From NCBI GenBank assembly GCA_028681135.1, contig JAQUJC010000007.1, positions 57 to 64,056 of the forward strand: DNA of 64,000 nt, given 5' to 3'. The notes beneath the pieces are model-generated. The model saw nothing but the letters and a program-made list of their open reading frames with translations, made no database searches and had not been told where the DNA came from. This document shows, in pieces, positions 12,937-50,204 of the stretch (position 1 is its first letter; every line of letters begins with the position of its first letter). The DNA is from Kiritimatiellia bacterium (GTDB lineage Bacteria > Verrucomicrobiota > Kiritimatiellia > CAIQIC01 > Lenti-01). A program made the position numbers and the translations under genes.

Positions 12937-12940
12937 CGCC

Positions 12941-17837: not shown

Positions 17838-17847
17838 AGAAGAACCA

Positions 17848-20074: not shown

Positions 20075-20757
20075 CGACGTACAGCGAACGGATTCTGAGC
20101 GGTGGCCGACTGGTTGCCTGGCAGCGGTTTGCGCGCTTCCGCGCAGCAGCGAAAGCGATCCAGCGTTTGGCCGGGCCTGTTGAAAAGCTGCTGGATATCG
20201 GGGCGGCGGACGGTATCGGGCTGCCCTTCCTGAAGACGGCTGCGAGACAGGTGGTCAGCGTCAACTACTACGAAAACCACACGCAGGAATTCCGGGCCGC
20301 ACATCCCGACGATCCGGTCCTGACCGCTGATGCCCGGGCCTTGCCGCTGGCCGATACGTCGTTCGACGCTTGCACGTCGTTTGAGACGCTGCACCTGGTG
20401 CCCGGACCGGCGGAACGGCGGAAATGCCTGGCGGAAATTTGGCGGGTGTTGCGGCCGGGCGGGCTTTTCGTCTGTTCGCTGCCGGTCGAGGTGGGCTATC
20501 CGGCCCTGATTAAGCTGGCGGCGCGCGCGGCCACGCGGCACCAGGTGGACGGCATGGGTTTCTCCCTGGCGCTGCGGCATTGCTGCTACCGGTGGAGCGA
20601 CCTCGAGCCATTCGACCGCGGCCGTCAGATCGGCTTCGACGTCCATCGTTTCGTGCGCGACGTCGGAAATATTTTTGTCGTTCTGCAAACCAAGGCGATC
20701 CCGATTCCCGTGCTTTTCCCCATGAATATGCTGGTCGTAGCCCGCAAACGTTCGTAA
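20071..20757 (+). CDS. Class I SAM-dependent methyltransferase
   Basis: 'LLDIGAADGIGLPFL' is motif I. 'LRPGGLFVCSLP' is the post-motif II region. The start overlaps the upstream stop. Confidence 0.65.
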   Translation: MTTYSERILSGGRLVAWQRFARFRAAAKAIQRLAGPVEKLLDIGAADGIGLPFLKTAARQVVSVNYYENHTQEFRAAHPDDPVLTADARALPLADTSFDACTSFETLHLVPGPAERRKCLAEIWRVLRPGGLFVCSLPVEVGYPALIKLAARAATRHQVDGMGFSLALRHCCYRWSDLEPFDRGRQIGFDVHRFVRDVGNIFVVLQTKAIPIPVLFPMNMLVVARKRS

Positions 20758-20771
20758 CTTTGTCCGTTGCC

Positions 20772-21722
20772 ATGGCACAAACCCAGTCATCCATTTGGCC
20801 GGAAGGGCGGTCGTTTGGACTGTTCCTGTCGCACGATATCGATCAAATCCACGACCGGGAACTCTGCCACGTCTTGGCGACGGCCAACCATATTCGCCGC
20901 ATCCTCGTGCAGGGCGAATCGGGACGCGTGGCGTTGGCGCTGCGGCGCCTGGGGCGGATTCTGTTCGCACCCAAACCGGTCGAGCAGGATTTTCAGACTA
21001 TTCTTGAAATCGAGGCGCGCCACGGCTTTCGCTCGACCTTCTTCGTGCTGCATGATCCTTATTGGAGCCGCAACGGTCCGCGCTATCGGCTGACCTGTCC
21101 CGAACTGCGGCGGATCGCAGATTTGATCCGCAAAGCCGGCGGCGAAATTGGGCTCCACGGCGGGGTCTCGTGCTTCAACCGGGCCGATTTGTATCGCGAG
21201 AGCCGTGCAGCGCTGCGCGCGGCGCTTGGTGTCGAAGTCGAGGGAATCCGCAATCATCTCCTGCAGTTTTCCGGCCCGGAGACCTGGTTGGCGCAGGAAG
21301 CCGCCGGATTCGTCTACGACGCCACGTTCGGATATTCCGACCGCCTGGGTCCGCGTGATGGCCGCACGCATCCATTTTTTCCCGTTGATCCCGCAACCGG
21401 GCGCACGCTCAAACTCGTTGCGCTGCCGTTGACGGTGATGGACGTGACCCTGTTCCGGTATTTGCGTATGGACGGCTCTGCGGCACTCGAAGCGGCCTGG
21501 ACTGCCATCGAACCCATTATCGCAGCGGGGGGGGTGGTTGCGTTACTGTGGCACAACAACTATTTCAATGATCCGGAATATCGCGACTGGCAGGCGACCT
21601 ACGAACACTTACTGGAGCGCCTGAGTGTGCGGAATCCCTGGTGTGCGACCGGCGCGGAAATCGCCGCTTGGTGGCGGCGCCGCGCTGATGTCTTGGACTC
21701 AAAAGAAACGGAACCATCATGA
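20772..21722 (+). CDS. Polysaccharide deacetylase-like (CE4/NodB-like) protein
   Basis: 316 aa from the ATG at 20772. 'GLFLSHDIDQ', 'RSTFFVL', 'EIGLHGG' and 'IRNHLLQFS' resemble NodB motifs 1-4. The assignment is tentative. Confidence 0.5.
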   Translation: MAQTQSSIWPEGRSFGLFLSHDIDQIHDRELCHVLATANHIRRILVQGESGRVALALRRLGRILFAPKPVEQDFQTILEIEARHGFRSTFFVLHDPYWSRNGPRYRLTCPELRRIADLIRKAGGEIGLHGGVSCFNRADLYRESRAALRAALGVEVEGIRNHLLQFSGPETWLAQEAAGFVYDATFGYSDRLGPRDGRTHPFFPVDPATGRTLKLVALPLTVMDVTLFRYLRMDGSAALEAAWTAIEPIIAAGGVVALLWHNNYFNDPEYRDWQATYEHLLERLSVRNPWCATGAEIAAWWRRRADVLDSKETEPS

Positions 21723-22603
21723 CCTCTACTCCTTCCGGGTCGTTCGAAGCCTGCGATCTTTGCGGGGCGACAGATTTCAAGCCGGTGGCCCAGCAGGGCG
21801 GATTCTGGATCTATCGCTGTCGCAATTGCGATTTGATTCAGGTCCGGCCTTTGCCCGCCGAGACTAAAGAGGTCAACCAGGACTACTGGCACGTCGATCT
21901 CGACAATCCCTCGACCCGCGTTTCCCGCTGGGGCAGCCGCTGCGTGTATCTCCACGGGTTGCGACGCATGGAAAAATGGACCGGCGCTGCGATCCGCGGG
22001 AAACGGCTGCTGGACGTCGGCTGCGGGATGGGTTTGTTTTTGGAAATCGCCCAGGAAGAGGGCGCGGTGCCCCATGGCCTCGATCTTACTCCGGAGGCGG
22101 TTGAAATGACCCGCCGGTTGTGTAAAATCGACACCGTGACGCAAGGCTATTTCGAGACGTGTGATGTGCCTCCCAACTCGTTCGACGTCGTCACTGGCTG
22201 GGGCGTGCTGCACCATACCCGGAGTCCCAGCCAATGGCTGGCGCAGGCCTACAACCTGCTGGTTCCGGGCGGCACACTGCTGGTGAAAATGCCCAATGTC
22301 GCCTTTACGGCAGCCGTTTCCAAGCTGAGCCCGGTGCTCCGGCGGCTGCATTTGCCGACCAGTCATTATTTGGCCTCGCGCCCGCCGTTGAACCTGTACG
22401 GATTTACCTGTCGAACGCTGACTGGCCTTTTGGAGAAAGCGTCCTTCGAGGTGCTGGCGGTCGAAAGCGCGCACATCCGCGGCAACGCGGGTTTTCTTGG
22501 CGGGCTCACGACGGCGGCGACGGTTCTGGCAACCGCTCTGACGCTGGGAAAAATCAATTTTAGCCCTGTTATTCTGGGTATTGCGAGAAAGTCGAAGAAA
22601 TAG
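21719..22603 (+). CDS. Class I SAM-dependent methyltransferase with N-terminal Cys4 zinc ribbon
   Basis: 'CDLCGAT...YRCRNCDL' precedes 'RLLDVGCGMGLFLEIAQEEGAVPHGLDL' (motif I) and 'LVPGGTLLVKMPN'. Confidence 0.75.
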   Translation: MTSTPSGSFEACDLCGATDFKPVAQQGGFWIYRCRNCDLIQVRPLPAETKEVNQDYWHVDLDNPSTRVSRWGSRCVYLHGLRRMEKWTGAAIRGKRLLDVGCGMGLFLEIAQEEGAVPHGLDLTPEAVEMTRRLCKIDTVTQGYFETCDVPPNSFDVVTGWGVLHHTRSPSQWLAQAYNLLVPGGTLLVKMPNVAFTAAVSKLSPVLRRLHLPTSHYLASRPPLNLYGFTCRTLTGLLEKASFEVLAVESAHIRGNAGFLGGLTTAATVLATALTLGKINFSPVILGIARKSKK

Positions 22604-22609
22604 AGAGCC

Positions 22610-24472
22610 ATGCACCCGGAATTCATCCTGATCGATAGCCTGTTGTCTCTGGGCGTTGCCGTAGTCCTTGCCGGCAGCGTCGGCGTGTTCTTGTTGAGCA
22701 AATGCTTCTTCCTGGCACCGTATCGCGCGGGGTGGCTGCTGCTGCTGCCCAACGTGTTCTACGAAACGGTGGAAATTAAACTGCATCTGCGCCGGGTGTG
22801 GATGGATAGCCTGTTGTTGTTCCTCGTCACGACGGGATCTGGTTTTCTGTGGGGTGGCTATGCAGCAGCGGGGGTGGCGCTAACGATGGGGGCCGCCTGG
22901 GTTGGCGCGTTGCTCGTGGACCTTCGCTGGCGTTCAGATCGACCCGCGCGGCAGCATGCAAAATACACTGGGCGCGTCCCCTTGCCGATTCCACGCCTGA
23001 TTGTGACCCTGCGGGGGGCCGTCATCCGGAGGACGAAGGCAGGGTATGATGTCGGCGACTGGCCGGAAGGATGGACGCAGACGTTTGAACTCCTGATTCT
23101 GAATCCGGGAACTGTCCGGCCGCAAGTCCCCCTTCAGGTCGAGGTCTCGACAACGTGTTCGAGTCTGGGTGTGACGGTGGAGGGGGGGGGCGAGCAGACA
23201 GGCCCGGATCCCGGACAAATCATTAGGTCATCATTCACCGTGAGTGCGGAGCGCGTGGGGCCAGGCGGTGACGTGCATCTGCGTGTCTCCCATGGCGATT
23301 GGACGTGGGAACGGACATTGTGCATGGGCTCGATTGTTGCCCGTGATTCGATCCGAATCCAAAGTGCCGCTATCCGCCGCTGGAAATATGGCGCGCGTGC
23401 CGGATTCGTTTGGCGGGGCGACAACGATCTATACGATCCCGCGACGTTTCAGTCGGCCGAGGGACTCCGCATCGCGCTGGGACTGGCCGCGCGGTTCCGG
23501 ATGCCGACCACCGTAATGCTGTCATCGCGACTGAGCCTGGATCGTGAGGCGCACGCGGCGTTCTGCAAGCGCTTTGGCTGGGATCGACACAGCGAAGACA
23601 TTCCCGCATTTATTCGCTTCTGGCGCGAGGAAGTGGACACCGCGACGGAGCAGGAATTTCCGATTCAGTGCGACAGCCCGCTATCGGCGGAAATCGGCAA
23701 TCATGGCCATCTGCATTGGGGAACACACGCCGCGGCCGACCCCGATAACGGCTGGACATCGCATGCGCGGTTGGGCGCGGGGAATTATCCGTGGCTGAAG
23801 GACTATCCGTGCGATTCCTTCGCAGAACAACGCGACAACATCGTCGCATGTACGCAGGCGATTGAAAAAAAACTGGGTGTGCAGACGACCTGCTACACGC
23901 CGCCGAGCGACATGTTTGATGCCCATACCGCACGGGCGGTGGAGGCCGCGGGCATCGAAATTGGCAACGAAACCGATGCCACCAAATGGCAAAAATTGCT
24001 CACGTTTCCTGCCGAACACCATCCGAAAGGGTGCGCCCGCCTGGTGGAACTGACGCGGATGCTGCCGCGCGACCCAGTGAATGCCCACCACATTGCCATG
24101 CTGAAATTCTGGGTTGGATTCGCACGCCGCCATGGCCGGGCGCTTGTGTTTTTGGCGCATCATCATCTGCTGATGTACCAGTCCAATGCTTGTTATGCCC
24201 TGACTGCGGAATTGCTGCGGCATGTGCTGGCCGATACCGAAGGGGATGTGTATCCGGCGACGTTGACCGCCATGGGCCGCTATTGGCGCGATGTGCTTAG
24301 CGAACGGACGCGTACCGTTCAGGTGCGGATCATCGGTCATACCGTCGAAGTTCAAAATGTCGGCGACCGTGATCTTTCGGGCCTGCCGTTGGAAATCAAA
24401 TTTCCGGAGGGTCGCGGCTGCATGTGCTTGGTCGATGTGGCGGCGCATTCGATGATCACCATCGAAACCTGA
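22610..24472 (+). CDS. Membrane-anchored protein with NodB/deacetylase-like domain, paralog A (function unknown)
   Basis: 620 aa with N-terminal TM helices. 'AGFVWRGDNDLYDPATFQSAEGLRIALGLAARF...EIGNHGHLHWGTHAAADPDNGWTSHARLGAGNYPWL' is ~55% identical in blocks to ORF 26783-28573. Confidence 0.5.
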   Translation: MHPEFILIDSLLSLGVAVVLAGSVGVFLLSKCFFLAPYRAGWLLLLPNVFYETVEIKLHLRRVWMDSLLLFLVTTGSGFLWGGYAAAGVALTMGAAWVGALLVDLRWRSDRPARQHAKYTGRVPLPIPRLIVTLRGAVIRRTKAGYDVGDWPEGWTQTFELLILNPGTVRPQVPLQVEVSTTCSSLGVTVEGGGEQTGPDPGQIIRSSFTVSAERVGPGGDVHLRVSHGDWTWERTLCMGSIVARDSIRIQSAAIRRWKYGARAGFVWRGDNDLYDPATFQSAEGLRIALGLAARFRMPTTVMLSSRLSLDREAHAAFCKRFGWDRHSEDIPAFIRFWREEVDTATEQEFPIQCDSPLSAEIGNHGHLHWGTHAAADPDNGWTSHARLGAGNYPWLKDYPCDSFAEQRDNIVACTQAIEKKLGVQTTCYTPPSDMFDAHTARAVEAAGIEIGNETDATKWQKLLTFPAEHHPKGCARLVELTRMLPRDPVNAHHIAMLKFWVGFARRHGRALVFLAHHHLLMYQSNACYALTAELLRHVLADTEGDVYPATLTAMGRYWRDVLSERTRTVQVRIIGHTVEVQNVGDRDLSGLPLEIKFPEGRGCMCLVDVAAHSMITIET

Positions 24473-24486
24473 CTGCCGATAGCGGA

Positions 24487-25524
24487 ATGTTGAATCGCAT
24501 GAACATCCTTACACTGACCTCCACACACCTCCCGCTCTGGGAGGAGTACGTGGCCCGGCAACCGGATGCAACCGTGTTCCATCTCGCGGGCTGGAAGCGG
24601 GTCATTGAACGCTCGACGGGCCATGTGGGCCATTACCTGATGGCCATGGAGCAGGAGCGGGTGGTGGGCATCTATCCGCTGTTTATGGTTTCCACGCGCC
24701 TGTTTGGCACGCGGGGCGTCAGCCTCCCGTTTGTCAGCTATGGCGGGTTGGTGGCCAATAACCTGGAGGTGGAACAGGCGCTGGGGGAGGCCGCCGTGCA
24801 TATTGCTCGCGCTGCTGGATGTGCCAGCATCGAATTGCGCCAACTCTACCCGGTGAAGTCCGCCTGGCCGACAACCGACCGAAAGGTGACAACGGAGATT
24901 TCAACGGAGGGCGGCGCCAACGCCGTGTTCGCCCGGCTGCACCAAAACGTGCGCAACAAAATCCGCAAGGCGGAGAAAAACGGCGTGATCGTCCAGCAGG
25001 GCCTGGAATTTTTGCCCGAATTTTATGCCATCTATTCCCGGAATCTCCGCGATCTGGGCACGCCCGTTCTGACGCGGCGCTTTTTCGAGGCCGTTCGGGA
25101 AGCCTTTCCAAGCCAGACCCGGATTTATCGGGCGGTGCGAAAAGGAACAACACTTGCTGCCAAAATGATCATTCGCGATGCCCGCACCTGTCATTTTGTC
25201 TGGTCTGCATCGCGGCGTGAGGCATTGCGCTATGCCCCGGTGCAGGCGATGAACTGGCGGGCGATCGAGGAGGCATGCGAAGCGGGGTGCGATCGCATCG
25301 ATCTTGGGCGCAGCACGGCCGAGTCCAGCCACTTCGATTTCAAAAAATACTGGGGCGGCGTGTCCCGCCCCTTGCCTTGGACTTATCAAGTGCTGGACCA
25401 GACGGCGACACCCGATTTGCACAAGGAAAACCCAAAATATGCGCTGGCGATCGCCTTGTGGAAACGGTTACCGCTGGGCGTGAGTCGAATTCTGGGACCG
25501 CCTATCGCTCGCGGTCTGCCTTGA
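24487..25524 (+). CDS. FemAB-family protein (resembles the PEP-CTERM/EPS-locus-associated FemAB subfamily), paralog 4
   Basis: 'FHLAGWKRVIERSTGHVGHYLMAMEQERVVGIYPLFMVSTRLFGTRGVSLPFVSYGGLV...RNKIRKAEKNGV...FDFKKYWGG' matches the EPS-associated FemAB-like pattern. Confidence 0.65.
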   Translation: MLNRMNILTLTSTHLPLWEEYVARQPDATVFHLAGWKRVIERSTGHVGHYLMAMEQERVVGIYPLFMVSTRLFGTRGVSLPFVSYGGLVANNLEVEQALGEAAVHIARAAGCASIELRQLYPVKSAWPTTDRKVTTEISTEGGANAVFARLHQNVRNKIRKAEKNGVIVQQGLEFLPEFYAIYSRNLRDLGTPVLTRRFFEAVREAFPSQTRIYRAVRKGTTLAAKMIIRDARTCHFVWSASRREALRYAPVQAMNWRAIEEACEAGCDRIDLGRSTAESSHFDFKKYWGGVSRPLPWTYQVLDQTATPDLHKENPKYALAIALWKRLPLGVSRILGPPIARGLP

Positions 25525-25535
25525 GGAATAGGACG

Positions 25536-26786
25536 ATGCATATTCTGTACATCCATCAATTTTATGCGGGTCCCGAAGCTCCCGGGCCGCGCCAGCCACG
25601 CGATCTTGTGCAGCGGCTGGCTGAGCGCGGCCATGTGGTGGAGGTGGTGGCGTGCGATCTGAATGCCTACAACGAACAGGCCGAGCCGGAGGAAACCAGG
25701 GCGGTTCCGGGAGGGGGCAGTATTCGCGTTCATCGTCTGCCGGTACCACGCGGCTTACGGGCCAGTTTGTTCAATCGTCTGAAAACCTATGGCTGGTTCG
25801 CGTGGTCAGCCTATCGCTTTGGCCGCCATCTGCCGATGCCCGATATCGTCATGGCAACCATTCAACCCCTGTTTGGCGGCGTGGCCGCCTTGCGGTTGGC
25901 CCGCCGCTGGAAACGGCCCTTTCTGCTGGAAGTCCGCGATTTATGGCCGGATGCGCTGGTGGTTAAAAAAGCCATTGCACGCTGGCAGGCGGCGCCGCTG
26001 CACGCGCTGGCGCGTTCGCTATATACCGGCGCGAATCGCGTCGTTGCCCTGACACCGGGCCTCAAAATCGAACTCCTGAAAAAAGGCATTCCACGCGACC
26101 GCTTGGATGTGTTCCCCAATGGGTACAACGAATCAACCTTTCAGTTGGAGCCCGGCACGCGGGAGCAGACGCGCAAAAAGTGGGGCTGGGCAGACCAATT
26201 CACAGCGGTATATGCCGGCTCACTGACTGAAGTGACAGCGGTCGAGACCCTCGTTCGTGCCGGAGCCTTTTTACGGTCGCGCCCGGATATCCGCCTCGAT
26301 CTGTTTGGCTACGGCCAAAGCAAACCCAAGGCGATGGCGCTGGCCAAGGAACTCAAATTGGAGCATGTTCATTTCCACGATGCGGTGCCCAAGACGCAGA
26401 TTCCCACGATTTTGGCGGGGGCGGATGCCGCACTGATGTCGCTGTTCCGCAGCCCACTGATCCACATCTATTTCGAGAATAAGTTTATCGACTACATGGG
26501 TTCGGGCCTGCCGATTTTGGCGTCCATGGAGGGCGTTCAAACCGACTTGATCCGCAAAGCTGGGGCGGGGGTCGTGGTGCCAACCTTCGACTCCGAGGCC
26601 CTGGCCCACGCCATTGCCAACGCGGCGGACCATCCGGAGCGGTGTCGGGAGATGGGTGCGGCAGGGCATCAGTTTATCAGCTCTAAACTGGACCAGAGTC
26701 TTATCCTGGATCGCTATGCGGATGTGCTCGAAGCTCTGGTGCAGGGCCGGGGTGACGCGGTGCCCACCTGGGATCCTTTTGAATGA
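25536..26786 (+). CDS. Glycosyltransferase family 4
   Basis: 416 aa from the ATG at 25536, with RBS-like 'aggaatagga' upstream. 'MHILYIHQFYAGPEAPGPRQPRDLVQRLAERGHVVEVV' is a GT4 N-domain signature, and the C-terminal half has a Glycos_transf_1-like region. Confidence 0.75.
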   Translation: MHILYIHQFYAGPEAPGPRQPRDLVQRLAERGHVVEVVACDLNAYNEQAEPEETRAVPGGGSIRVHRLPVPRGLRASLFNRLKTYGWFAWSAYRFGRHLPMPDIVMATIQPLFGGVAALRLARRWKRPFLLEVRDLWPDALVVKKAIARWQAAPLHALARSLYTGANRVVALTPGLKIELLKKGIPRDRLDVFPNGYNESTFQLEPGTREQTRKKWGWADQFTAVYAGSLTEVTAVETLVRAGAFLRSRPDIRLDLFGYGQSKPKAMALAKELKLEHVHFHDAVPKTQIPTILAGADAALMSLFRSPLIHIYFENKFIDYMGSGLPILASMEGVQTDLIRKAGAGVVVPTFDSEALAHAIANAADHPERCREMGAAGHQFISSKLDQSLILDRYADVLEALVQGRGDAVPTWDPFE

Positions 26787-28573
26787 ACAGTATTTTTTAT
26801 GTCATAGGCGGTATGCTACTGACGCCAGTCGTGCTGGCGCGCTTGTTTGCCTTGGCGCGCTTCCGCACCGGATGGGCGCTGTATCTGGCCAATGTTGTTT
26901 GGGAAGTATTTCCTAAAAAATTGGGGGTGGACCGCTTTTGGATCGAGGCCCTGGCTGTCGGGCTGGGATTGACGAGCCTTCGACTAGGCGGCGCGAGCTG
27001 GATCCTCGTAGGCGGGGTGACCGCAGGGATACTGGTGCTGGAGGCTGCGGATCGGCTTATCGTTCGGCTGCTGTTTGGGGAGTTGGGTGTGCCGCGCCTG
27101 GTCTACATGCTGGAAGGGCCGTTTGTGGCGCGGTTGCCGCGGTATCGGTTCGGCGTGTTGTGGGTGGGCCAGTCTGTTGCCCTTGAATTACGGGTGCTCA
27201 ATCCCACTCGGCAGCCATGGCCTAATCCGCTGCATGTGCAGTTGGATGTCCCCGCCGGCTGGTTGGAAAACGGAGCCGCCAAACAGACCATCGAGCCCTT
27301 GGCGTCTGGCGGTGTGGGGCAGGCAAGCTGGACCCTGCGACCACATGCGGCGTGCTCTGCCGGTGAATGTGCCATCCGAATCGATGGCGATCGATTGGTC
27401 CATGGTCTGCGTGTGCGGTTCGATGGCTGCCGGTGTGGCGGAGAGGCCCGGGTGGTACAGGCTGCCATTGCCCGTTACCCCGGGGGGCGCAACAGTGCGT
27501 TTGTCTGGCGTGGCGATATGGACCTCTACGATGTGCGCACGTTTCAGTCTATCGAAGGGCTGGAGACGACCCTGGGCTTGGCCGCGCGCTATGCGTTTCC
27601 CCAGACGATGTGTCTGTCTACACGGTTGTCACTCAATGAATCGGCCGCACGGGAATATGCGTCTCATGAAGGGATGGAGACCGGGGCAGATGAGATTCCA
27701 CGGTTCATTCAGTGGCTGAACCAAGCCGTTGACTTGTGCCATCGGGCGCCTTGGCCCGCCCGCAGGGCAGACAAACGATATGTCCTGGAGTTGGGTAATC
27801 ACGGGCATCTGCATTATGACACCGCGGCGGCGGCGGCGCCAGAAAATAACTGGACATCGCACGCCAAGATGGGCGCGGGGCGCTATCCGTGGCTGGGGGA
27901 GGACCGCTCATCTTTTGGAGAGCAGCGCGATAATATTCTCGAAGCGGCGCGTTGGTGCAGGCGGTTGCTGGGGTTTGCGCCGCGATCATGGGCCAAGCCG
28001 GGGCGCTGCAACGATGTCGACACGGCGCGGGCCGCCGAGGCCGCCGGCTGCGAGGTGCTGAGCGGCTCCGATATCCGCGCCCGCGATAACGTGCTCCTTC
28101 AGCCACCGCCCCACCATCCCGGCGGCACCAATGCTGTGGAACTGACCTCGCGCTATCCGCCCGATCCGCAGCATGGTTTTCATTTCTTTATGTTGGTCTT
28201 TTGGCTGAATCGATCCCGGCGGTTAGGCCGCCCGATGGTCTTCATGTGCCATCAGCACATGCGGCAGTGGGAGGGGCCCAACTGCGCGCGCTTTACAGAG
28301 GCCTTGATCCGACGCGTGTTGCTCGATTTCCACGGCGAGTATTACATCGATACACTTTTCGGCGTGGGCAAGTATTGGCGTGAAGTGCTCAGCCCCCAGA
28401 CACGGCGGCTGAGCGTGTCGCTGGCGGGGACGCGCCTAATCGTCGAAAACCGTAGCGATGTGAGCTTTGATCAGGTGCCCGTGGATTTGGAACTGGAAGA
28501 TGGGGCTCGCTCTACTGTGCTGGTTTCCGTCCGCAGTGGGCAGACAATAGAAGTGAAGTTGCAGGAGCAGTAG
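26783..28573 (+). CDS. Membrane-anchored protein with NodB/deacetylase-like domain, paralog B
   Basis: 596 aa. 'SAFVWRGDMDLYDVRTFQSIEGLETTLGLAARY...ELGNHGHLHYDTAAAAAPENNWTSHAKMGAGRYPWL' is a paralog of 22610-24472. Confidence 0.5.
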   Translation: MNSIFYVIGGMLLTPVVLARLFALARFRTGWALYLANVVWEVFPKKLGVDRFWIEALAVGLGLTSLRLGGASWILVGGVTAGILVLEAADRLIVRLLFGELGVPRLVYMLEGPFVARLPRYRFGVLWVGQSVALELRVLNPTRQPWPNPLHVQLDVPAGWLENGAAKQTIEPLASGGVGQASWTLRPHAACSAGECAIRIDGDRLVHGLRVRFDGCRCGGEARVVQAAIARYPGGRNSAFVWRGDMDLYDVRTFQSIEGLETTLGLAARYAFPQTMCLSTRLSLNESAAREYASHEGMETGADEIPRFIQWLNQAVDLCHRAPWPARRADKRYVLELGNHGHLHYDTAAAAAPENNWTSHAKMGAGRYPWLGEDRSSFGEQRDNILEAARWCRRLLGFAPRSWAKPGRCNDVDTARAAEAAGCEVLSGSDIRARDNVLLQPPPHHPGGTNAVELTSRYPPDPQHGFHFFMLVFWLNRSRRLGRPMVFMCHQHMRQWEGPNCARFTEALIRRVLLDFHGEYYIDTLFGVGKYWREVLSPQTRRLSVSLAGTRLIVENRSDVSFDQVPVDLELEDGARSTVLVSVRSGQTIEVKLQEQ

Positions 28574-28574
28574 G

Positions 28575-29432
28575 ATGCCGTTGGTTTGCACTGTGGACGT
28601 CGAGGACTGGGCGCAGTCCACCCTCGATACCGCCATGCCCATTTCGGACCGGGCGGGGCCCAACATGGAGCGCGTGCTGGATGTGCTGGCTGAAGAAAAC
28701 GTCCAGGCCACCTGCTTTGTCTTGGGAAAGTTTGCCGAGAAGTTTCCAGACACGGTCCGGCGCATCGCGGCGGAAGGCCACGAAGTCGCCTCCCATGGCT
28801 ACGGGCATGTGGATGTGTTTCAGATGTCGCCCACCCAGTTCAGGGAAGATATCCGCCGCTCAAAAGACCAATTGGAAACACTGACTGGTGTGGGGGTAAA
28901 GGGCTATCGCGCGCCAGATTTTTCCATCGTTAAGGAATCGCTGTGGGCGCTGGATGTTCTGGCGGAAGAAGGGTTTATTTATGACGCCAGCATCAATCCG
29001 GCTGTACTGGCACGCTTCGGTGTGCCGGGGTTTCCATCGCAGCCGGTGCGAATGCCAGTGAGTGGCGGCTTGACCCTGGTGGAGTTGCCGGTGGCGACGC
29101 TGCGTGTGATGGGACGGCATCTGCCCGTGGCCGGGGGGGGGTATCATCGCCTTTTGCCGTATTCGCTCATCCGTTGGGTGATCGAAAGGACTGTGCTGGC
29201 CGAAGAAGTCTTCATGGCCTACTGCCATCCCTATGAATTTGATCCGGACGAATTTAAACATTTGAAATTCCCACTGCCGCTGAAAACTCGCCTGCACCAA
29301 GGCCTCGGACGGCGAGGATTCGAGAATAAATTCCGCCAGATGCTCCGGCAATTCGAGACGACCCTGGCGGCAACCGTCGCGGAAAAGGCGCTGGACGCTG
29401 CACCGAGTTTCTCCGAATTACTAAAGAGTTAA
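28575..29432 (+). CDS. Polysaccharide deacetylase family protein (PEP-CTERM/EPS-locus subfamily-like)
   Basis: 'MPLVCTVDVEDWAQS...ENVQATCFVLGKFAEKFPDTVRRIAAEGHEVASHGYGHVDV...GYRAPDFSI' has the N-terminal VDVEDW motif typical of the EPS-locus NodB subfamily. There is a G9 tract at 29133-29141. Confidence 0.75.
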   Translation: MPLVCTVDVEDWAQSTLDTAMPISDRAGPNMERVLDVLAEENVQATCFVLGKFAEKFPDTVRRIAAEGHEVASHGYGHVDVFQMSPTQFREDIRRSKDQLETLTGVGVKGYRAPDFSIVKESLWALDVLAEEGFIYDASINPAVLARFGVPGFPSQPVRMPVSGGLTLVELPVATLRVMGRHLPVAGGGYHRLLPYSLIRWVIERTVLAEEVFMAYCHPYEFDPDEFKHLKFPLPLKTRLHQGLGRRGFENKFRQMLRQFETTLAATVAEKALDAAPSFSELLKS

Positions 29433-29543: not shown

Positions 29544-30230
29544 ATGACTTCTTTTCAACAAATCACCAAGCGGTTATTTGATCTTACCCTTGCTTTCGTG
29601 GGGCTGGTGGTGCTGACGCCGGTTCTGCTGATCGTGGCGGTGGTGGTTCGGGTTTCATCACCCGGGCCGGCGCTGTTCATCCAGGACCGAGTGGGGCGGC
29701 ATGGTCGGATGTTCCGCTGCGCGAAGTTTCGCACGATGCGGACCGGGATGGACCACCACGGCAGCGTGACGGCAGCAGGGGATGACCGGATCACGCCGGT
29801 GGGGCGGTTCCTGCGGCGGTGGAAGTTGGATGAGTTGCCGCAACTATGGCATGTTCTGACCGGACGAATGGCGCTGGTAGGACCGCGGCCCGATGTGCCG
29901 GGTTATGCCGACCGGCTCGAAGGGGACGCCCGCCGAGTATTGGTCCTGCGGCCAGGCATCACCGGTCCCGCCGCTCTCTTCTTTCGCGACGAAGAACGGC
30001 TGCTGGCACTGGCGCGCAATCCGCGCCGCTTTAATGACGAGGTTCTCTTTCCCGAAAAGGTGCGCATCAATCTGGAGTATTTGGCGCACGCCTCGTTCTG
30101 GCGCGATATCGGCTATTTGATATCTACCGTGGCGCCGGGGGCGGCGCGACGCCTGGGATTAGAGCGACGGCTGGGCTTGGACGATGCAGGATTTTTCACT
30201 CGCATGGAGCAGAACGCCATGCACTACTGA
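29544..30230 (+). CDS. Undecaprenyl-phosphate sugar phosphotransferase (small PglC/WbaP-C-terminal type priming transferase)
   Basis: 'LFDLTLAFVGLVVLTPVLLIVAVVVRVSSPGPALFIQDRVGRHGRMFRCAKFRTM...DELPQLWHVLTGRMALVGPRP' is the canonical Bac_transf signature. Confidence 0.85.
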   Translation: MTSFQQITKRLFDLTLAFVGLVVLTPVLLIVAVVVRVSSPGPALFIQDRVGRHGRMFRCAKFRTMRTGMDHHGSVTAAGDDRITPVGRFLRRWKLDELPQLWHVLTGRMALVGPRPDVPGYADRLEGDARRVLVLRPGITGPAALFFRDEERLLALARNPRRFNDEVLFPEKVRINLEYLAHASFWRDIGYLISTVAPGAARRLGLERRLGLDDAGFFTRMEQNAMHY

Positions 30231-30251: not shown

Positions 30252-31433
30252 ATGAAGAATCCAAGGATATTTCTTTCTCCGCCGCACATGAGTGGGCGGG
30301 AGCAGGCGTTTGTGAAGCAGGCGTTTGAGTCGAACTATATCGCGCCGCTGGGGCCCATGGTGGATGCTTTTGAAAAAGAGTTTGCGGAGGTTACGGGCAT
30401 TCCGCATTGCCTCGCGTTGGCCAGCGGTACCGCGGCCACTCATCTGGCGCTGCGTCATCTGGGGGTGGGGCCGGGCGATGAAGTGTTGGCCTCCACCTTG
30501 ACGTTTATCGGCAGCGTGACGCCGGTGATGTTCCAGGGTGCCACTCCGGTGTTCCTTGACTGCGATGAAGAAAGCTGGAACATGGACCCGGTGCTGCTGG
30601 AGCGGGCGTTGGACGATGCCGCCCAGCGTGGAAAAACACCCAAGGCGGTGATTCCCACCGATCTCTATGGCCAACCCTGTGAGCTGCCGCGAATACGGGC
30701 CCTCTGCGACCGTCATGGCGTACCGGTGTTATGTGATTCGGCGGAAGCGATGGGAGCGAAATATCGGGAGCCAGAGAGCAAATATCCAATATCCAACGGG
30801 ACCTCGGACCCCTGGCGGCACGCCGGTGCCGACGCGTGGGCATCGGTGTTTTCGTTCAACGGCAACAAAATCATCACGACCTCAGGCGGCGGGATGCTGG
30901 CTTCGCACGATCGGGAACTGATGGATCATGCCCGCAAGCTATCGCAGCAGGCGCGGGACCCGCTGCCGTGGTATGAGCACACTGAAATCGGATTCAATTA
31001 CCGCCTGAGTAATATCCTGGCGGCCATTGGACTCGGCCAGCTTGAAGTGCTGGAGGAACGGGTGCGTCGCCGGCGGGAGATTTTTGATGGCTATCGCCAA
31101 CGTCTGGGGGATGTGCCGGGCGTCTCCTTTATGCCCGAACCCGCCACCTGCCAGAGTAACCGTTGGCTTACGGTTGTGTTGATCGATCCTGTAGCCTTCG
31201 GGGCGGATACTAATGCAGTGCGCATCGCGCTCGAAGCAGAGAACATTGAAGCGCGGCCCGTATGGAAGCCCATGCATCTTCAACCCGTATTTAAGGGCTG
31301 CCGGTTTTGGGAAAGCGAGCAGGGCATTAGCGAGAAGCTATTTGATCAGGGCTTGTGCCTGCCCTCCGGGACGGCGATGACGGATACCGACCTTGACCGA
31401 GTGTGCGGGATTGTCCAAAAACTTCATGCCTGA
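30252..31433 (+). CDS. DegT/DnrJ/EryC1/StrS-family PLP-dependent sugar aminotransferase (PglE/WbpE-like)
   Basis: 'FESNYIAPLGPMVDAFEKEFAEVTGIPHCLALASGTAATHLAL...SFNGNKIITTSGGGML' includes the Lys-containing PLP motif region. Confidence 0.85.
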   Translation: MKNPRIFLSPPHMSGREQAFVKQAFESNYIAPLGPMVDAFEKEFAEVTGIPHCLALASGTAATHLALRHLGVGPGDEVLASTLTFIGSVTPVMFQGATPVFLDCDEESWNMDPVLLERALDDAAQRGKTPKAVIPTDLYGQPCELPRIRALCDRHGVPVLCDSAEAMGAKYREPESKYPISNGTSDPWRHAGADAWASVFSFNGNKIITTSGGGMLASHDRELMDHARKLSQQARDPLPWYEHTEIGFNYRLSNILAAIGLGQLEVLEERVRRRREIFDGYRQRLGDVPGVSFMPEPATCQSNRWLTVVLIDPVAFGADTNAVRIALEAENIEARPVWKPMHLQPVFKGCRFWESEQGISEKLFDQGLCLPSGTAMTDTDLDRVCGIVQKLHA

Positions 31434-31995: not shown

Positions 31996-33897
31996 ATGCT
32001 TCAGCAATTCAAAAATCGTAATTTTTACATTATTTTGGTGGGCGACGTGGTCTTGTTCGCCGCGTCGCTGATCTTGGCCTATGGCTTGCGGTTTTCGCTG
32101 GAGATTCCGGGGTCGGAATGGCGTCAAATCGTTCTGCTGCTGCCGTGGCTGCTGATCATCAAAGTAGCTGTTTTTTATGCGATGGGGGTGTATCGCGGCA
32201 TGTGGCGCTATACCAGCGTGCCGGATGCGATTCGGTTGACCAAGGCGTCCATTATCGCGACGCTTGCTATCATGACGGCGCTGACCCTTGTCCATCAGTT
32301 TAAGGGCTTCTCGCGTTCCGTTTTTCTGGCGGATTGCATTTTTACCGTCTTTTTCTGTAGCGGTTCCCGACTGATCATTCGCGTGTTGAGCACAAAAAAG
32401 CGCGGTGGCTTAAAGTTTTGGGACCGGGAAGACGAAGACAGCCTGCCAGTTCGGCATGTGCGGCTCTTGATCATCGGGGCGGGGGATGCTGCGGCCAGCA
32501 TCATCCGGGAAATCCAGGGCAACCCCCATTCGCCCTACGATGTGGTGGCGTGCATCGATGACGATCTGCGCAAGCATGGACAGACCCTGCTTGAGGTGCC
32601 CGTGCGCGCGCCGATCGAGCGCCTGCTTTTTTATGTGAACCGGTTCCAGGTGGACGAAATCCTGATTGCGATGCCGTCGGTGGTGGGGGAAACCATGCGG
32701 CAGATTGTGAGTGCCTGCAAGGCGAGCGGCCTGCCGTTTAAGACCCTGCCCTCGCTGGGGTCACTGGTGGATGGCAAAGTCACAGTCAATGATGTCCGTA
32801 ATGTAGAGTACGAGGATATTCTAGGGCGTTCGCCGGTGCAGTTGGACCATGCCGGGATTGGCCGGTGCCTGACCGGGAAAACCGTGGCGGTGACCGGGGC
32901 GGGGGGGTCTATTGGATCGGAGCTGTGTCGCCAGATTCTGCGATTCAATCCGGCGGTGTTAGTGTTGATTGAGTCCAGCGAATTCAATTTGCACCAGATC
33001 GAGCAGGAACTGCGGCGCGAGAGCCGCTTCGAAGGGTTGCGCACCGTCCTGGGGCGGGTGCAGGATCGCGTGCTGATGGCCAATGTGTTCGACCGCTACC
33101 GGCCTCAGGTGGTGTTTCATGCGGCAGCGTGCAAGCATGTGCCGATTGTGGAATTGAATCGACGCGAGGGGATTCTGAATAATGTCCTCGGCAGCTTGAC
33201 CCTGATGGACGTGGCTGAGGAGTATGGCGTCGAACGCTTTGTGCAGGTCTCCACCGACAAGGCGGTGCGGCCGACAAACGTGATGGGTGCCAGCAAGCGT
33301 GTGGTGGAAATGGCCCTGCAGGCGCGAGTGCCGGGCAAGACGCGATTCATGGCCGTGCGCTTTGGCAACGTGCTGGGTTCCTCGGGATCGGTTATCCCGC
33401 TCTTCCAACGGCAGATTCAGACCGGGGGGCCCGTCACGGTGACCCATCCGGATATCACCCGCTATTTCATGATGATTCCCGAGGCCTGTCAGTTGATTCT
33501 ACAGGCGGGGGCCATGGGCGAGGGAGGCGAAATCTTCATTTTGGAGATGGGCACACCCGTCAAGATTGCCGACATGGCGCGTGATATGATCCGGCTGTCC
33601 GGCAAGGTGCCGGAGCAGGACATCCAGATCGTTTATACCGGATTGCGCCCCGGCGAGAAGCTCCACGAAGAACTGATCACCCAGGGCGAGGGCATCGTGG
33701 CGACCGCCCATGAAAAGATCATGGTGCTCCGGCGCGATGGGCCCGCCGCAACGGATGCCGATTCGGATCGGCGGATTCGCGCTCAGATCGACCGCCTGGT
33801 GCAAACGGCAGACACGTTCGATGCCGGGCAGGTTAAGGATACCTTGCAAGACATCGTGCCGGAATATCTCCCGGAGTTGCCCGCGGCGGGGTCATGA
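31996..33897 (+). CDS. Membrane-bound UDP-GlcNAc 4,6-dehydratase (PglF/CapD/WbpM family)
   Basis: 633 aa from the ATG at 31996, with 4 N-terminal TM helices. 'VTGAGGSIGSELCRQIL' is a Rossmann motif. 'VSTDKAVRPTNVMGASKRVVE' matches the YxxxK region (here MGASK), and 'RFGNVLGSSGSVIP' follows. Confidence 0.85.
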   Translation: MLQQFKNRNFYIILVGDVVLFAASLILAYGLRFSLEIPGSEWRQIVLLLPWLLIIKVAVFYAMGVYRGMWRYTSVPDAIRLTKASIIATLAIMTALTLVHQFKGFSRSVFLADCIFTVFFCSGSRLIIRVLSTKKRGGLKFWDREDEDSLPVRHVRLLIIGAGDAAASIIREIQGNPHSPYDVVACIDDDLRKHGQTLLEVPVRAPIERLLFYVNRFQVDEILIAMPSVVGETMRQIVSACKASGLPFKTLPSLGSLVDGKVTVNDVRNVEYEDILGRSPVQLDHAGIGRCLTGKTVAVTGAGGSIGSELCRQILRFNPAVLVLIESSEFNLHQIEQELRRESRFEGLRTVLGRVQDRVLMANVFDRYRPQVVFHAAACKHVPIVELNRREGILNNVLGSLTLMDVAEEYGVERFVQVSTDKAVRPTNVMGASKRVVEMALQARVPGKTRFMAVRFGNVLGSSGSVIPLFQRQIQTGGPVTVTHPDITRYFMMIPEACQLILQAGAMGEGGEIFILEMGTPVKIADMARDMIRLSGKVPEQDIQIVYTGLRPGEKLHEELITQGEGIVATAHEKIMVLRRDGPAATDADSDRRIRAQIDRLVQTADTFDAGQVKDTLQDIVPEYLPELPAAGS

Positions 33898-37149: not shown

Positions 37150-37175
37150 AAGAACGATACGAGTGGAGGTGACAG

Positions 37176-50202: not shown

Positions 50203-50204
50203 TC

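Follow-up and report, generated by a model that had tools for sequence, protein, structure and literature searches.

Two membrane proteins of related sequence, here called paralogs A and B, are encoded on either side of a FemAB-family gene and a GT4 glycosyltransferase gene in a 64,000-nucleotide stretch of DNA from a Kiritimatiellia bacterium (the window). What reaction do they perform, and at which stage of glycan synthesis? The explanation that we favor, and to which we give about an even chance, is that A and B diverged long ago within an unnamed family of the CE4 (NodB-fold) deacetylase superfamily, acting as membrane-tethered de-N-acetylases that would feed N-re-acylation in a manner analogous to the Wbp/Vim system.

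The features of the locus are shown in Table 1. The ORF listing confirmed the coordinates of the four open reading frames A, FemAB, GT4, and B, all on the forward strand. The frames of FemAB (24424..25524) and GT4 (25275..26786) extend upstream of the likely true starts, about 24499 and 25536 (MHILYIHQ), respectively; the start of the VimE-like gene is uncertain (GTG 20754 or ATG 20772; the ORF opens at 20580). The genes form a polysaccharide-synthesis operon in which packing is tight, with intergenic gaps of 1–27 nt or overlaps: 6 nt separate the MT2 stop from the A start, the GT4 stop and B start overlap by 4 nt (ATGA), and the DUF3473-CE4 gene starts 1 nt past the B stop. The locus also encodes a Wza/Wzc/Wzx export apparatus, and the window has Wbp-type genes (a WbpB-like oxidoreductase, hexapeptide acetyltransferases, a WecB/WbpI-like epimerase, and the DegT aminotransferase). 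The domain assignments in Table 1 bear out the sequence-only reading in placing a FemAB and a glycosyltransferase between the paralogs.

Table 1. Features of the locus in the window, with the evidence for each
Feature	Positions	Strand	Basis
VimE-like soluble CE4-type deacetylase	20754..21722	+	NCBIfam NF053580 (VimE), 99.9 bits, far below the equivalog cut-off of 440
MT2, class I SAM methyltransferase	21719..22603	+	Pfam Methyltransf_23/11/12/25
Paralog A, 620 aa, membrane-anchored, predicted CE4 fold, unnamed family	22610..24472	+	AF2, Foldseek, homologues
A membrane segment, residues 3-108	22616..22933	+	AF2 helices, hydrophobicity, K/R distribution, conservation
A beta-sandwich (NEW3/NPCBM_assoc-like), residues 113-243	22946..23338	+	All-beta in model, PF10633
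A CE4/NodB-like alpha/beta catalytic domain (predicted), residues 252-565	23363..24304	+	Foldseek, HHalign, PF01522
A candidate CE4 motif 1, D271-N-D273-L-Y-D276	23420..23437	+	End of strand 264-272, W-R-G-D-x-D-L-Y-D block
A candidate CE4 motif 2, H365-G-H-L-H369, two putative metal-binding His, i/i+4	23702..23716	+	Invariance, P0371 alignment
A candidate CE4 motif 5, H517-H-H519, candidate catalytic acid His	24158..24166	+	Follows strand 511-515
A C-terminal beta-sandwich, residues 570-619	24317..24466	+	AF2 strands 570-619
FemAB-family (VimA-like) aminoacyl/acyl transferase (gene X here)	24499..25524	+	TIGR03019 (304.3 bits, cut-off 260.35), Acetyltransf_6, FemAB
GT4 glycosyltransferase	25536..26786	+	Pfam Glyco_trans_4_4 and Glycos_transf_1
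Paralog B, 596 aa, architecture as A	26783..28573	+	AF2, Foldseek, 264 homologues
B TM segment	26786-27085	+	
B beta-sandwich	27101-27433	+	
B CE4-like domain (predicted)	27452-28390	+	
B C-terminal beta-sandwich	28409-28558	+	
Canonical soluble CE4 with DUF3473, XrtA-system polysaccharide-deacetylase-like	28575..29432	+	PF01522 (84.7 bits), PF11959 (99.7 bits)
Small polyprenyl-phosphate glycosyl-1-phosphate transferase (Bac_transf type)	29544..30230	+	TIGR03025 C-terminal half, 204.7 bits
DegT/LegC/PseC-type sugar aminotransferase	30252..31433	+	TIGR04181, 342 bits, below the cut-off of 420

BLASTP aligned A and B at 35% identity and 50% positives over 601 aa (E = 3e-103), a similarity far beyond chance, and the two proteins are paralogs. 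The common blocks first quoted for them were found: FVWRGD(N/M)DLYD, FQS(A/I)EGL, LGLAAR, E(I/L)GNHGHLH, and (G/N)WTSHA(R/K)(L/M)GAG(N/R)YPWL; only the quoted “NWTSHA” needs correction, as A has “NGWTSHA”. All 184 homologues of A were annotated as hypothetical, and none had Pfam domains. Neither A nor B reached threshold with a sequence model of Pfam, NCBIfam, or PDB (Pfam matches were sub-threshold only), and PDB sequence searches, a profile query included, returned no match. The paralogs belong to no curated family, in agreement with the claim that they have no close resemblance to characterised enzymes. A duplicated cassette had also been proposed. Our results showed that the duplication is confined to the A/B gene; the Fem/Fem2, GT4/GTu, and VimE-like/DUF3473 pairs have family-level kinship only (23–28% identity). 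Nor is the duplication local or recent. It is ancient: A and B represent two deep clades, which are found together, with the gene order kept, in many phyla.

The AlphaFold2 (AF2) models of A (pLDDT 95.6, pTM 0.94) and B (pLDDT 93.9, pTM 0.93) are very confident and have the same domain order: first a TM segment, then the NEW3-like beta-sandwich and the alpha/beta domain, and finally a second beta-sandwich at the C terminus. Of 55 family members, 15 matched PF10633 (best E = 3.5e-7), and B scored 23.3 bits against the cut-off of 24.4 for this model. In Foldseek searches with both models, only CE4 structures reached substantial TM-scores. The matches were 3rxz (TMt 0.65 for A, with E = 7e-9, and 0.65 for B), ArnD (0.61 and 0.59), and HP0310 (0.56 for B; TM 0.52–0.56 across the A and B models), with BA3943, IcaB, and the Xyl-CE4 domain among the other listed matches and NDST1 (N-deacetylase/N-sulfotransferase) also listed for B. 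The Pfam CE4 model matched no family member above threshold; residues 361–450 of A matched PF01522 below it, and 12 of 55 members and several distant relatives fell just under it at the same motif positions. Protein P0371, which exceeds the cut-offs of both PF01522 and PF10096 and is a bona fide CE4/DUF2334 protein, matched the family profile (E = 8e-4). HHalign aligned residues 354–455 of A to P0371 across HxxxH (probability 96.9%, E = 1.4e-10), the only significant sequence link of the family; with the profile of the locus's own DUF3473 CE4 it gave no link (probability 0.3). The NodB-like domain suggested from the sequence was thus recovered by structure prediction and by profile alignment, and the check for a match to an unrelated characterised family found none. 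As judged from the models and alignments, A and B are built on the NodB/CE4 deacetylase fold.

The resemblance to CE4 enzymes (PF01522; PgdA, PplD, IcaB) includes the distorted (beta/alpha) barrel, an Asp-rich motif closing the first barrel strand, H-x-x-x-H after a strand ending in (I/L)GN, a His straight after a late strand, and a home in glycan-biosynthesis loci. Unlike these enzymes, A and B have a conserved 30-residue insertion past motif 2 (invariant T372, N380, W382, and W395), and their barrel, predicted to be cytoplasmic, lies between two beta-sandwich domains and is joined to a multi-helix membrane segment. The family shares with DUF2334 (PF10096) 85 aligned columns over EIxxHGxLH, EQR, and TPPSxxxD-T-RA-E-G, but A and B do not match that model above threshold, and its members, P0371 among them, are small, soluble proteins (about 270 aa) with a single domain.

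The gene order VimE-like, A, X, GT4, B, DUF3473-CE4, in which X is a FemAB, GNAT, or ATP-grasp gene, recurs for both clades in numerous phyla and classes. Wherever downstream sequence exists, X follows the A-clade gene at 5–560 nt (FemAB in 8 distinct loci, ATP-grasp in at least 20, GNAT in 3). A GNAT gene comes next after basal single-copy B-clade genes, and a FemAB/Acetyltransf_6 gene overlaps a distant family member. A VimE-like homologue was present in 27 of 34 loci (at least 15 kb and carrying a family member), GT4 lay immediately upstream of B in 30 of 38, and in 35 of 37 a CE4 gene was found downstream of B at a distance of up to 2.5 kb (up to 300 nt in 25). The Bac_transf-type transferase is syntenic across most loci, and the aminotransferase gene is also syntenic; MT2 occurs in some related loci only. 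The A subclades track X type and B does not: locus L026, whose X is an ATP-grasp, shares 81% identity with the window in B and 86% in the CE4, but 52% in A. This co-variation could reflect mere physical linkage. All three X types depend on cytoplasmic donors (aminoacyl-tRNA, acyl-CoA, or ATP). Either the VimE-like or the DUF3473 soluble CE4-type deacetylase could already supply the amine for FemAB, and the role of A and B may differ.

It is possible, if unlikely, that A and B hydrolyse another group: an O-acetyl ester, an N-formyl group (as ArnD does), or an acyl or aminoacyl group installed by X, in trimming or proof-reading. O-acetyl esterases and the deformylase ArnD both belong to the CE4 superfamily and are among the structural matches (7fbw, 7ax7, 8t0j), two soluble deacetylases are already in the locus, and A subclades co-varying with X type are expected if A recognises the product of X. 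In a further variant the substrate is a nucleotide sugar and the membrane segment serves for localisation only. Against this variant, the whole-chain pTM of 0.93–0.94 argues for a functional TM part rather than a mere tether, and invariant polar residues (R62, E52, N48, and D66 in A) lie within the membrane segment.

That segment (residues 3–108 in A and 2–101 in B) supports the earlier claim of N-terminal TM helices, both by the AF2 helices and by mean Kyte-Doolittle values of 1.5–2.1 for three of them. In A it consists of a TM helix (H1), an amphipathic helix (H2), and a hairpin (H3–H4). By the positive-inside rule, the catalytic domain is predicted to be cytoplasmic: predicted-inside segments have a K+R of about 10 and those outside about 0, and 4.2 K/R come after the last TM helix, a distribution that strongly favors C-in in the 3-TM and 4-TM readings alike. 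Distant relatives, in which H1 is missing, combine the hairpin with an N-terminus and a linker that are both K/R-rich, and are thus unambiguously N-in/C-in. We consider it quite unlikely, then, that A and B are helix-anchored enzymes with a periplasmic CE4 domain, acting at the polymer level like PgaB, IcaB, PelA, or PplD to de-N- (or de-O-) acetylate a finished or nascent polysaccharide or a flipped lipid-linked form. Such a placement fits the CE4 fold common to IcaB and other secreted deacetylases, the export apparatus, and PplD, a TM-anchored extracellular CE4 that acts on linkage-unit GlcNAc (PMC8807736). NEW3/CARDB-like beta-sandwich domains are usually found outside the cytoplasm, which counts against a cytoplasmic placement. 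However, A and B lack an n-region like that of a cleavable signal peptide, as well as a conserved Cys pair (C528 is the sole nearly invariant Cys), and their coupling to enzymes able to work only in the cytoplasm is tight and spans phyla. A and B lie in a cassette for sugar tailoring, together with an acyltransferase and a glycosyltransferase. The label “polysaccharide-modifying”, however, implies that the polymer is the substrate and should be adjusted: the predicted topology and the obligatory cytoplasmic partners point to a membrane-bound precursor at the cytoplasmic face.

Conservation was assessed in 80 sequences from taxonomically diverse loci (39 A-clade and 41 B-clade) and in alignment A1, with 55 sequences. 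D271, D273, D276, H365, H369, H471, D488, H517, and H519 were invariant, and the invariant columns across both clades total more than 40. The Asp residues of motif 1 are candidates for the catalytic base and a metal ligand; like the CE4 TFDD, they lie at the C-terminal end of a strand. The H365–H369 block aligned to QHGFLH of P0371, and the spacing equals that of the PplD Zn ligands H223/H227 (PMC8807736). H517 and H519 are separated by H in clade A but by Q in clade B; distant relatives have H-P-H. From motif order and invariance we infer a metal triad in A and B. There is a slim chance that one or both are inert scaffolds, perhaps as an A–B heterodimer, which hold the soluble FemAB/GNAT/ATP-grasp, GT4, and CE4 enzymes together at the membrane. 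The CE4 pseudoenzyme BA3943 is a structural match, motif 1 departs from the consensus (G-D-x-D, not D-D), as does motif 3, whose Arg is not conserved, and the paralogs are kept together in 23 of 29 loci. But single-copy loci exist, so a heterodimer is not obligatory, and invariance of this kind is typical of active sites; with every candidate catalytic Asp/His invariant in both clades, both paralogs are probably active. It is very improbable that the barrel belongs to a glycoside hydrolase or transglycosylase (GH66, GH13, GH27, or GH2-like): dextranase, cyclomaltodextrinase, alpha-galactosidase, and GH2 enzymes do appear among the Foldseek matches (E = 1e-7 to 1e-5), but at TM 0.2–0.25 and rmsd 15–27 Å these share only the beta-sandwich/barrel/beta-sandwich order, whereas CE4 structures reach TMt 0.56–0.65 and CE4/DUF2334 is the only significant sequence link.

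ArnD, the 4-deoxy-4-formamido-L-arabinose-phosphoundecaprenol deformylase (PDB 8t0j), acts at the cytoplasmic face of the membrane, where it takes a small N-acyl group off an amino sugar linked to polyprenyl phosphate. It is a top structural match of both models, but has no sequence similarity to A or B (the NCBIfam ArnD model gives no match), lacks the TM hairpin and beta-sandwich domains, and belongs to lipid A modification rather than to Wzx/Wzy polysaccharide loci. The vim operon is not known to encode an A/B-type membrane protein. In Porphyromonas gingivalis and Tannerella forsythia, the Wbp/Vim system comprises the deacetylase VimE, the FemAB-like transferase VimA, and the glycosyltransferase VimF (PMC7468200). 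VimA matches TIGR03019 and moves Ser/Gly onto a de-acetylated amino sugar, for which VimE was proposed to supply the amine, a precedent for deacetylation, aminoacylation, and glycosyl transfer in that order (PMC7468200). The window resembles this system in its VimE-like CE4, TIGR03019 FemAB, GT4, and Wbp-type genes, but the window's VimE-like protein is far under the equivalog cut-off, and in A/B loci the FemAB slot is exchangeable with GNAT or ATP-grasp. XrtA/PEP-CTERM EPS loci pair a TIGR03019 FemAB with a TIGR03006 deacetylase; the window's FemAB passes its cut-off, and its DUF3473 deacetylase is close at 242.8 bits, under the TIGR03006 cut-off of 276.2. No exosortase or PEP-CTERM protein was found in the 64-kb window, and the XrtA gene set as described does not include A or B.

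In the de-N-acetylase scheme that we prefer, the membrane part (TM helix, amphipathic interfacial helix, and TM hairpin with invariant Arg, Glu, and Asn) would carry a rigid cytoplasmic unit of NEW3-like beta-sandwich, CE4-like (beta/alpha) barrel, and C-terminal beta-sandwich. An Asp of W-R-G-D-x-D and both His of N-H-x-x-x-H would form a divalent-metal site, and a His of the H-x-H block would be the general acid. A and B would hydrolyse the N-acetyl (or another small N-acyl) group of a membrane-held amino sugar, most likely an undecaprenyl-diphosphate-linked intermediate of a Wzx/Wzy repeat unit. The freed amine would be re-acylated by the product of the gene directly after A (the VimA-like FemAB transferase in the window, a GNAT or ATP-grasp ligase elsewhere) and, as in Wbp/Vim, an amino acid could thus replace the acetyl group. 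The chain would then be extended by GT4, and B would act at a second position or residue together with GT4 and the DUF3473 deacetylase. In many phyla, a gene of this family almost always has one for an amide-bond-forming enzyme after it, which suggests that the family removes the N-acetyl group to allow a different acyl group.

The sequence-only reading had placed four genes here, in the order of a membrane-anchored protein (paralog A), a FemAB-type gene, a GT4 glycosyltransferase, and a second membrane-anchored protein (paralog B), and we found four ORFs at those positions, all on the forward strand (see the table). Their spacing is operon-like: 6 nt separate the stop codon of the upstream methyltransferase from A, the stop of the GT4 gene and the start of B overlap (ATGA), and the next gene begins 1 nt past the B stop. 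Because the TIGR03019 match begins only at residue 39 of the FemAB ORF, the internal ATG is probably its true start.

Coordinates of the features in the window and of the parts of paralog A (residues)
Feature	Position	Strand	Size or basis
Two Wzy_C proteins	984-2471 and 11554-12936	+	
bAvd-like gene	5782-6225	+	PF05635, 102.9 bits
Protein with esterase-like domain	12869-15004	+	711 aa
Two FemAB/Acetyltransf_6-like genes	15663-16658 and 17821-18834	+	
Paralog A, membrane-anchored CE4-fold protein	22610..24472	+	620 aa
A, N-terminal helices	residues 3-108		AF2 model
A, beta-sandwich	residues 113-243		AF2 model
A, alpha/beta domain	residues 252-565		AF2 model
A, C-terminal beta-sandwich	residues 570-619		AF2 model
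FemAB-type gene	ORF 24424..25524, probable true start ATG 24499	+	TIGR03019
GT4 gene	ORF 25275..26786, probable true start 25536 (MHILYIHQ)	+	
Paralog B	26783..28573	+	596 aa
SynChlorMet-like cassette	33894-38179	+	
Secreted protein	38414-47806	+	3130 aa
Nucleotidyltransferase, exporter, and porin genes	48359-53340	+	

A and B align from end to end with 35% identity and 50% positives over 601 residues (E = 3e-103), and the shared sequence blocks that had been quoted for them were all found. The proposal that the whole module had been duplicated was not borne out: the other gene pairs of the window (FemAB and a further FemAB-like gene, Fem2; GT4 and a further glycosyltransferase; the VimE-like and DUF3473 deacetylases; the two methyltransferases) are only 23-28% identical, over partial lengths. 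A recent local duplication is likewise rejected by the cross-phylum synteny and by the neighbour-joining tree of the family, which has two deep clades, A and B, with the single-copy loci basal. The deep clades and the low identity of the other pairs argue for an old duplication of one gene.

Neither paralog had a threshold-level match in any curated library searched (Pfam, NCBIfam). Against PF01522 (Polysacc_deac_1), A scored 16 bits (gathering threshold 23.1) and B did not match; 12 of 55 family members matched at E < 0.1, all under the cut-off. B reached 23.3 bits with PF10633 (NEW3; cut-off 24.4), and a single one of the 55 members matched DUF2334 (PF10096; threshold 26 bits) at E = 0.086, the distant relative P0297 scoring 15.1 bits. 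NCBIfam returned nothing for A or B at E up to 0.1, including the ArnD equivalog model NF011923, and the resemblance to ArnD appears confined to the predicted fold. No match to PDB sequences was obtained by phmmer with A and B or by the 55-sequence profile search. Homologues formed 184 (A) and 264 (B) clusters at 90% identity, about 450 in the family, nearly all of about 600-625 aa. They are spread over Verrucomicrobiota, Kiritimatiellia, Lentisphaerae, Planctomycetota, Chlorobiaceae, Acidobacteriota, Myxococcota, Chromatiales, and other groups. Where named, they are "hypothetical protein" or, once, "NEW3 domain-containing protein", and precomputed Pfam domains are almost absent. An HMM search of 1.84 billion representatives gave only 134 matches, many of them fragments. 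As judged by these searches, the family is compact and well isolated; our literature searches turned up no paper on it.

AlphaFold2 models built from the 55-sequence alignment had a pLDDT of 95.6 and pTM of 0.94 for A, and 93.9 and 0.93 for B, with the same four parts in both. The NodB-like fold suspected by the sequence-only reading was upheld by structure prediction and the remote-homology check, as a distorted (beta/alpha)7-8 barrel of CE4/NodB type is present in each model. Foldseek searches of the PDB with both models gave substantial TM-scores from CE4 structures only: the putative polysaccharide deacetylase 3rxz (TMt 0.65), ArnD (8t0j; TMt 0.59-0.61), and HP0310 (TMt 0.52-0.56), with further entries for BA3943, IcaB, a xylan CE4, and the N-deacetylase/N-sulfotransferase NDST1. 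Glycoside hydrolases were matched too, but a glycoside-hydrolase identity was rejected, since those matches (TM 0.2-0.25, rmsd 15-27 Å) reflect only the domain order sandwich-barrel-sandwich.

When the family profile was compared by HHalign with a 13-sequence profile of the DUF3473 CE4, the canonical soluble enzyme encoded after B, there was no signal (probability 0.3), so the link to CE4 was obtained through the fold search and an intermediate sequence. Distant relatives of the family repeatedly gave PF01522 matches slightly under threshold, at identical motif positions. P0371, of 273 aa, was retrieved by the family profile at E = 8e-4 and passes both PF01522 (27.2 > 23.1) and DUF2334 (42.3 > 26). 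HHalign matched it to residues 354-455 of A with a probability of 96.9% and E = 1.4e-10, over only 85 columns. The alignment pairs EIGNHGHLH of A with EINQHGFLH (CE4 motif 2, with the two metal His), EQRD with EQRA, and, in the motif 3 region, YTPPSDMFD..TARAVEAAG with FTPPSNKYD..TLRAMEDLG.

In CE4 enzymes, motif 1 (T-F-D-D) holds the catalytic base Asp and a metal Asp, motif 2 (H-(S/T)-x-x-H) is the source of two metal ligands, the Arg of motif 3 (R-x-P-Y) orients the base, and the His of motif 5 (L-x-H) is the catalytic acid. The candidate for motif 2, N-H365-G-H-L-H369 (numbering of A), is conserved without exception in 80 of 80 sequences, and HHalign pairs it with QHGFLH of P0371, a bona fide CE4; its two His are spaced (H-x-x-x-H) like H223/H227, the Zn ligands in the CE4 enzyme PplD (PMC8807736). 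At the end of predicted strand 264-272, outside the segment aligned by HHalign, the invariant W-R-G-D271-x-D273 is a candidate variant of motif 1 by its position relative to the predicted strands. L-A-H517-H-H519, which follows predicted strand 511-515 and in which H517 and H519 are invariant, is a candidate for motif 5 by position only. Motif 3 has no conserved Arg: A has Y-T-P-P432-S and B has W-A-K-P-G, the Pro being invariant, and the invariant R408 and R269 might be stand-ins. Across 39 A-clade and 41 B-clade sequences from many phyla, D271, D273, D276, H365, H369, H471, D488, H517, and H519 do not vary, and from this conservation neither paralog looks like a pseudoenzyme. The two clades have fixed differences, namely H518 in A versus Q491 in B, Y/H367 versus H342, and, inside a transmembrane helix, D66 versus E55, which suggest different specificities.

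The N-terminal region has three hydrophobic helices (mean Kyte-Doolittle 2.1, 1.6, and 1.5) and an amphipathic one, H2 (0.36). As means over 55 sequences, Lys plus Arg counts are 1.3 in the H1-H2 loop, 2.7 in H2, 1.7 in the H2-H3 loop, and 4.2 in the 20 residues after H4. Essentially nothing precedes H1, and the H3-H4 turn is Gly-Gly. The globular part is predicted to be cytoplasmic under the 3-TM and 4-TM readings alike. In the distant relatives P0266 and P0275, which lack H1, a K/R-rich N-terminus is followed by a hairpin and a K/R-rich linker, for which the predicted topology is unambiguously N-in/C-in. R62, E52, N48, and D/E66 are invariant polar residues within the membrane region; together with the whole-chain pTM of 0.93-0.94, they make this region look like an integral part of the machine and not a loose tether.

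A genome scan found 63 loci with family members, in Verrucomicrobiota, Kiritimatiellia, Lentisphaerales/Victivallales, Planctomycetota, Chlorobiaceae, Holophagales, Thermoanaerobaculia, Myxococcales, other deltaproteobacteria, Ectothiorhodospira/Chromatiales, Gaiellales, Dehalococcoidales, and GN15; a Thiocapsa rosea member came from the protein search. Mapping by tblastn revealed a conserved order: VimE-like deacetylase, (methyltransferase), A, the gene directly after it (gene X), GT4, B, DUF3473 CE4, small phosphoglycosyl transferase, and aminotransferase. B lay within 6 kb of A in 23 of the 29 loci with enough sequence, GT4 was immediately upstream of B in 30 of 38, in 35 of 37 a CE4 gene lay no more than 2.5 kb after B, 25 of these at 300 nt or less, and the VimE-like gene was found in 27 of 34 long loci. 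The order is GT4-CE4-B in Ectothiorhodospira, and A and B are adjacent in locus L033. Some loci (L028, L031, L033, L039, and L055) carry an extra, more divergent DUF3473-like CE4 (33-42% identity).

Wherever sequence was available, an amide-bond-forming enzyme was encoded 5-560 nt after the A-clade gene, and it was of three unrelated kinds. Gene X is a TIGR03019 FemAB in this window and eight distinct loci, and the A proteins encoded beside it group in a single tight subclade (71-76% identity). In at least 20 loci gene X is an ATP-grasp ligase (about 400 aa), and in Thiocapsa and two further cases it is a GNAT (about 360 aa). It is the GNAT type that comes after the basal single-copy B-clade genes, and the start of the P0266 gene is overlapped by a FemAB/Acetyltransf_6 gene. 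Subclades of A track the type of X; B does not. In the Kiritimatiellia MAG BF2_42 (locus L026), B, the DUF3473 CE4, the phosphoglycosyl transferase, and the aminotransferase are 81-86% identical to those of the window, whereas A is only 52% identical and an ATP-grasp replaces the FemAB. A and X thus move as a unit, which points to exchange of this cassette by recombination within otherwise closely related loci. Each of the three kinds of enzyme is able to acylate an amine, and all need cytoplasmic donors (aminoacyl-tRNA, acyl-CoA, or ATP plus acid).

The window is a Wzx/Wzy-type heteropolysaccharide locus. It encodes a Wza-like export protein, a Wzc-like tyrosine autokinase, a Wzx-like flippase, and two separate Wzy_C (O-antigen ligase/polymerase-like) membrane proteins, with a WbpB-like oxidoreductase, two hexapeptide acetyltransferases, a WecB/WbpI-like epimerase, several GT4, up to three FemAB-like genes, two methyltransferases, and the VimE-like deacetylase; downstream of B are the DUF3473 CE4, the small phosphoglycosyl transferase, a DegT aminotransferase, and a PglF-like dehydratase. 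The two additional FemAB/Acetyltransf_6-like genes lie upstream of the cassette. Fem2 matches PF13480 with 40 bits and is 24% identical to the TIGR03019 gene; the match of the other is very weak. With these genes, the polysaccharide may carry several different N-acyl or aminoacyl groups. The locus also holds a "23S rRNA-intervening sequence protein"/bAvd-like four-helix-bundle gene, between the WbpB-like oxidoreductase and a hexapeptide acetyltransferase, and a protein with an acetyl-xylan/glucuronyl-esterase-like alpha/beta-hydrolase domain. All identified ORFs from 237 to 53340 are on the forward strand, GC skew is positive over almost the whole window, and cumulative skew rises nearly monotonically, which fits a single long block of genes in one orientation.

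The EPS genes are followed immediately by a SynChlorMet-like peptide-maturation cassette with two radical SAM/SPASM proteins (ScmE-like, 379.7 bits, and ScmF-like, 331.4, each against a cut-off of 400), a PqqD/ScmD-like protein, and a weak ScmC-like protein, all just under the equivalog cut-offs. The secreted protein beyond it has a signal peptide, seven SdrD_B repeats, DUF11, SpaA, four MBG domains, and a Peptidase_C25 (gingipain-family) domain; neither PEP-CTERM nor another recognisable sorting signal was found at its C-terminus. Since the gingipains of Porphyromonas gingivalis are attached via the Vim sugar, a C25-peptidase protein beside a Wbp/Vim-like pathway is intriguing. A weak signal-peptidase-I-like ORF, an NTP_transf_5 "uncharacterised nucleotidyltransferase", an MsbA/HlyB-type ABC exporter, and a putative beta-barrel porin (BBP2_2) follow; they may be an export or maturation set for the radical SAM peptide or the 3130-aa protein.

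Two known systems resemble the locus in part. The window's FemAB belongs to TIGR03019 of the XrtA/PEP-CTERM EPS system (304.3 bits; cut-off 260.35), whereas its DUF3473 deacetylase is close to TIGR03006 but under the cut-off (242.8 versus 276.2 bits). No exosortase was found by NCBIfam or Pfam among about 45 ORFs scanned across the window, and the C25-peptidase protein has no PEP-CTERM tail, so an XrtA/PEP-CTERM identity is unsupported within the window; such genes could lie beyond its ends. The other is the Wbp/Vim pathway of P. gingivalis and Tannerella forsythia, in which the CE4 enzyme VimE is proposed to take the 2-N-acetyl off a di-N-acetyl-glucuronic acid, VimA adds Ser or Gly to the freed amine, and VimF is the associated glycosyltransferase (PMC7468200). 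VimA matches TIGR03019 (PMC7468200), the family of the window's FemAB, which is a candidate VimA-type transferase. The window's VimE-like protein scores 99.9 bits against NF053580 (cut-off 440), as a relative and not an equivalog.

Taken together, A and B very probably represent a new family of CE4-superfamily hydrolases dedicated to sugar tailoring in EPS synthesis. They are homologous to CE4 enzymes but fail membership of PF01522, PF10096, ArnD, and TIGR03006 and deviate in motifs 1 and 3. They also have features absent from the comparators examined: the anchor has several helices and carries conserved polar residues, a beta-sandwich flanks the barrel on each side, motif 2 is followed by a conserved insertion of 30 residues, the location is predicted to be cytoplasmic, and the amide-forming partner is obligatory yet interchangeable.

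How they would act is a more evenly balanced question. ArnD deformylates an undecaprenyl-phosphate-linked amino sugar at the cytoplasmic face, and the fold-level resemblance of A and B to it fits a role as metal-dependent de-N-acetylases that are tethered to the membrane and face the cytoplasm. In this scheme they would free an amine on a membrane-bound amino sugar, which is probably linked to Und-PP; X would acylate this amine anew, and GT4 would then lengthen the chain. A second site would fall to B, acting with GT4 and the DUF3473 enzyme. The Wbp/Vim pathway offers a precedent for this mechanism (PMC7468200). We give this scheme, de-N-acetylation by A and B with re-acylation by X, about an even chance, a difficulty being that either of the two soluble CE4 deacetylases encoded in the locus could serve the FemAB. 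More tentatively, and with the balance somewhat against it, the family could be an unrecognised integral-membrane, cytoplasm-facing class of CE4 enzymes that de-N-acetylates Und-PP-linked repeat-unit intermediates and, with a FemAB, GNAT, or ATP-grasp, makes up a portable "N-acyl swapping" cassette, the transmembrane Arg, Glu, and Asn binding the polyprenyl-diphosphate head group. If so, this cassette would diversify the N-acyl decoration of surface polysaccharides across many phyla, and A and B may work as a heteromeric pair, each on its own amino group (such as N-2 and N-3 in a 2,3-diamino uronic acid).

The finding does not amount to a new biological principle. What is new is the architecture and probably the substrate class, both inside a known superfamily. 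The present labels, "hypothetical protein" or "NEW3 domain-containing protein", make the family an annotation target, and, if the proposal is correct, an uncurated family without a Pfam or NCBIfam model becomes defined. The non-orthologous replacement of X, among FemAB, GNAT, and ATP-grasp, gives testable predictions on the acyl group of the sugar. A and B are members of a well-defined, testable, and widely distributed uncharacterised enzyme family. If correct, the proposal would have the family perform the opening half of an "N-acetyl out, new N-acyl in" edit on membrane-bound glycan precursors and would account for the presence of unusual N-aminoacyl or N-acyl amino sugars in exopolysaccharides. 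The Wbp/Vim logic, described to date from periodontal Bacteroidota, would then apply to a far wider range of environmental bacteria.
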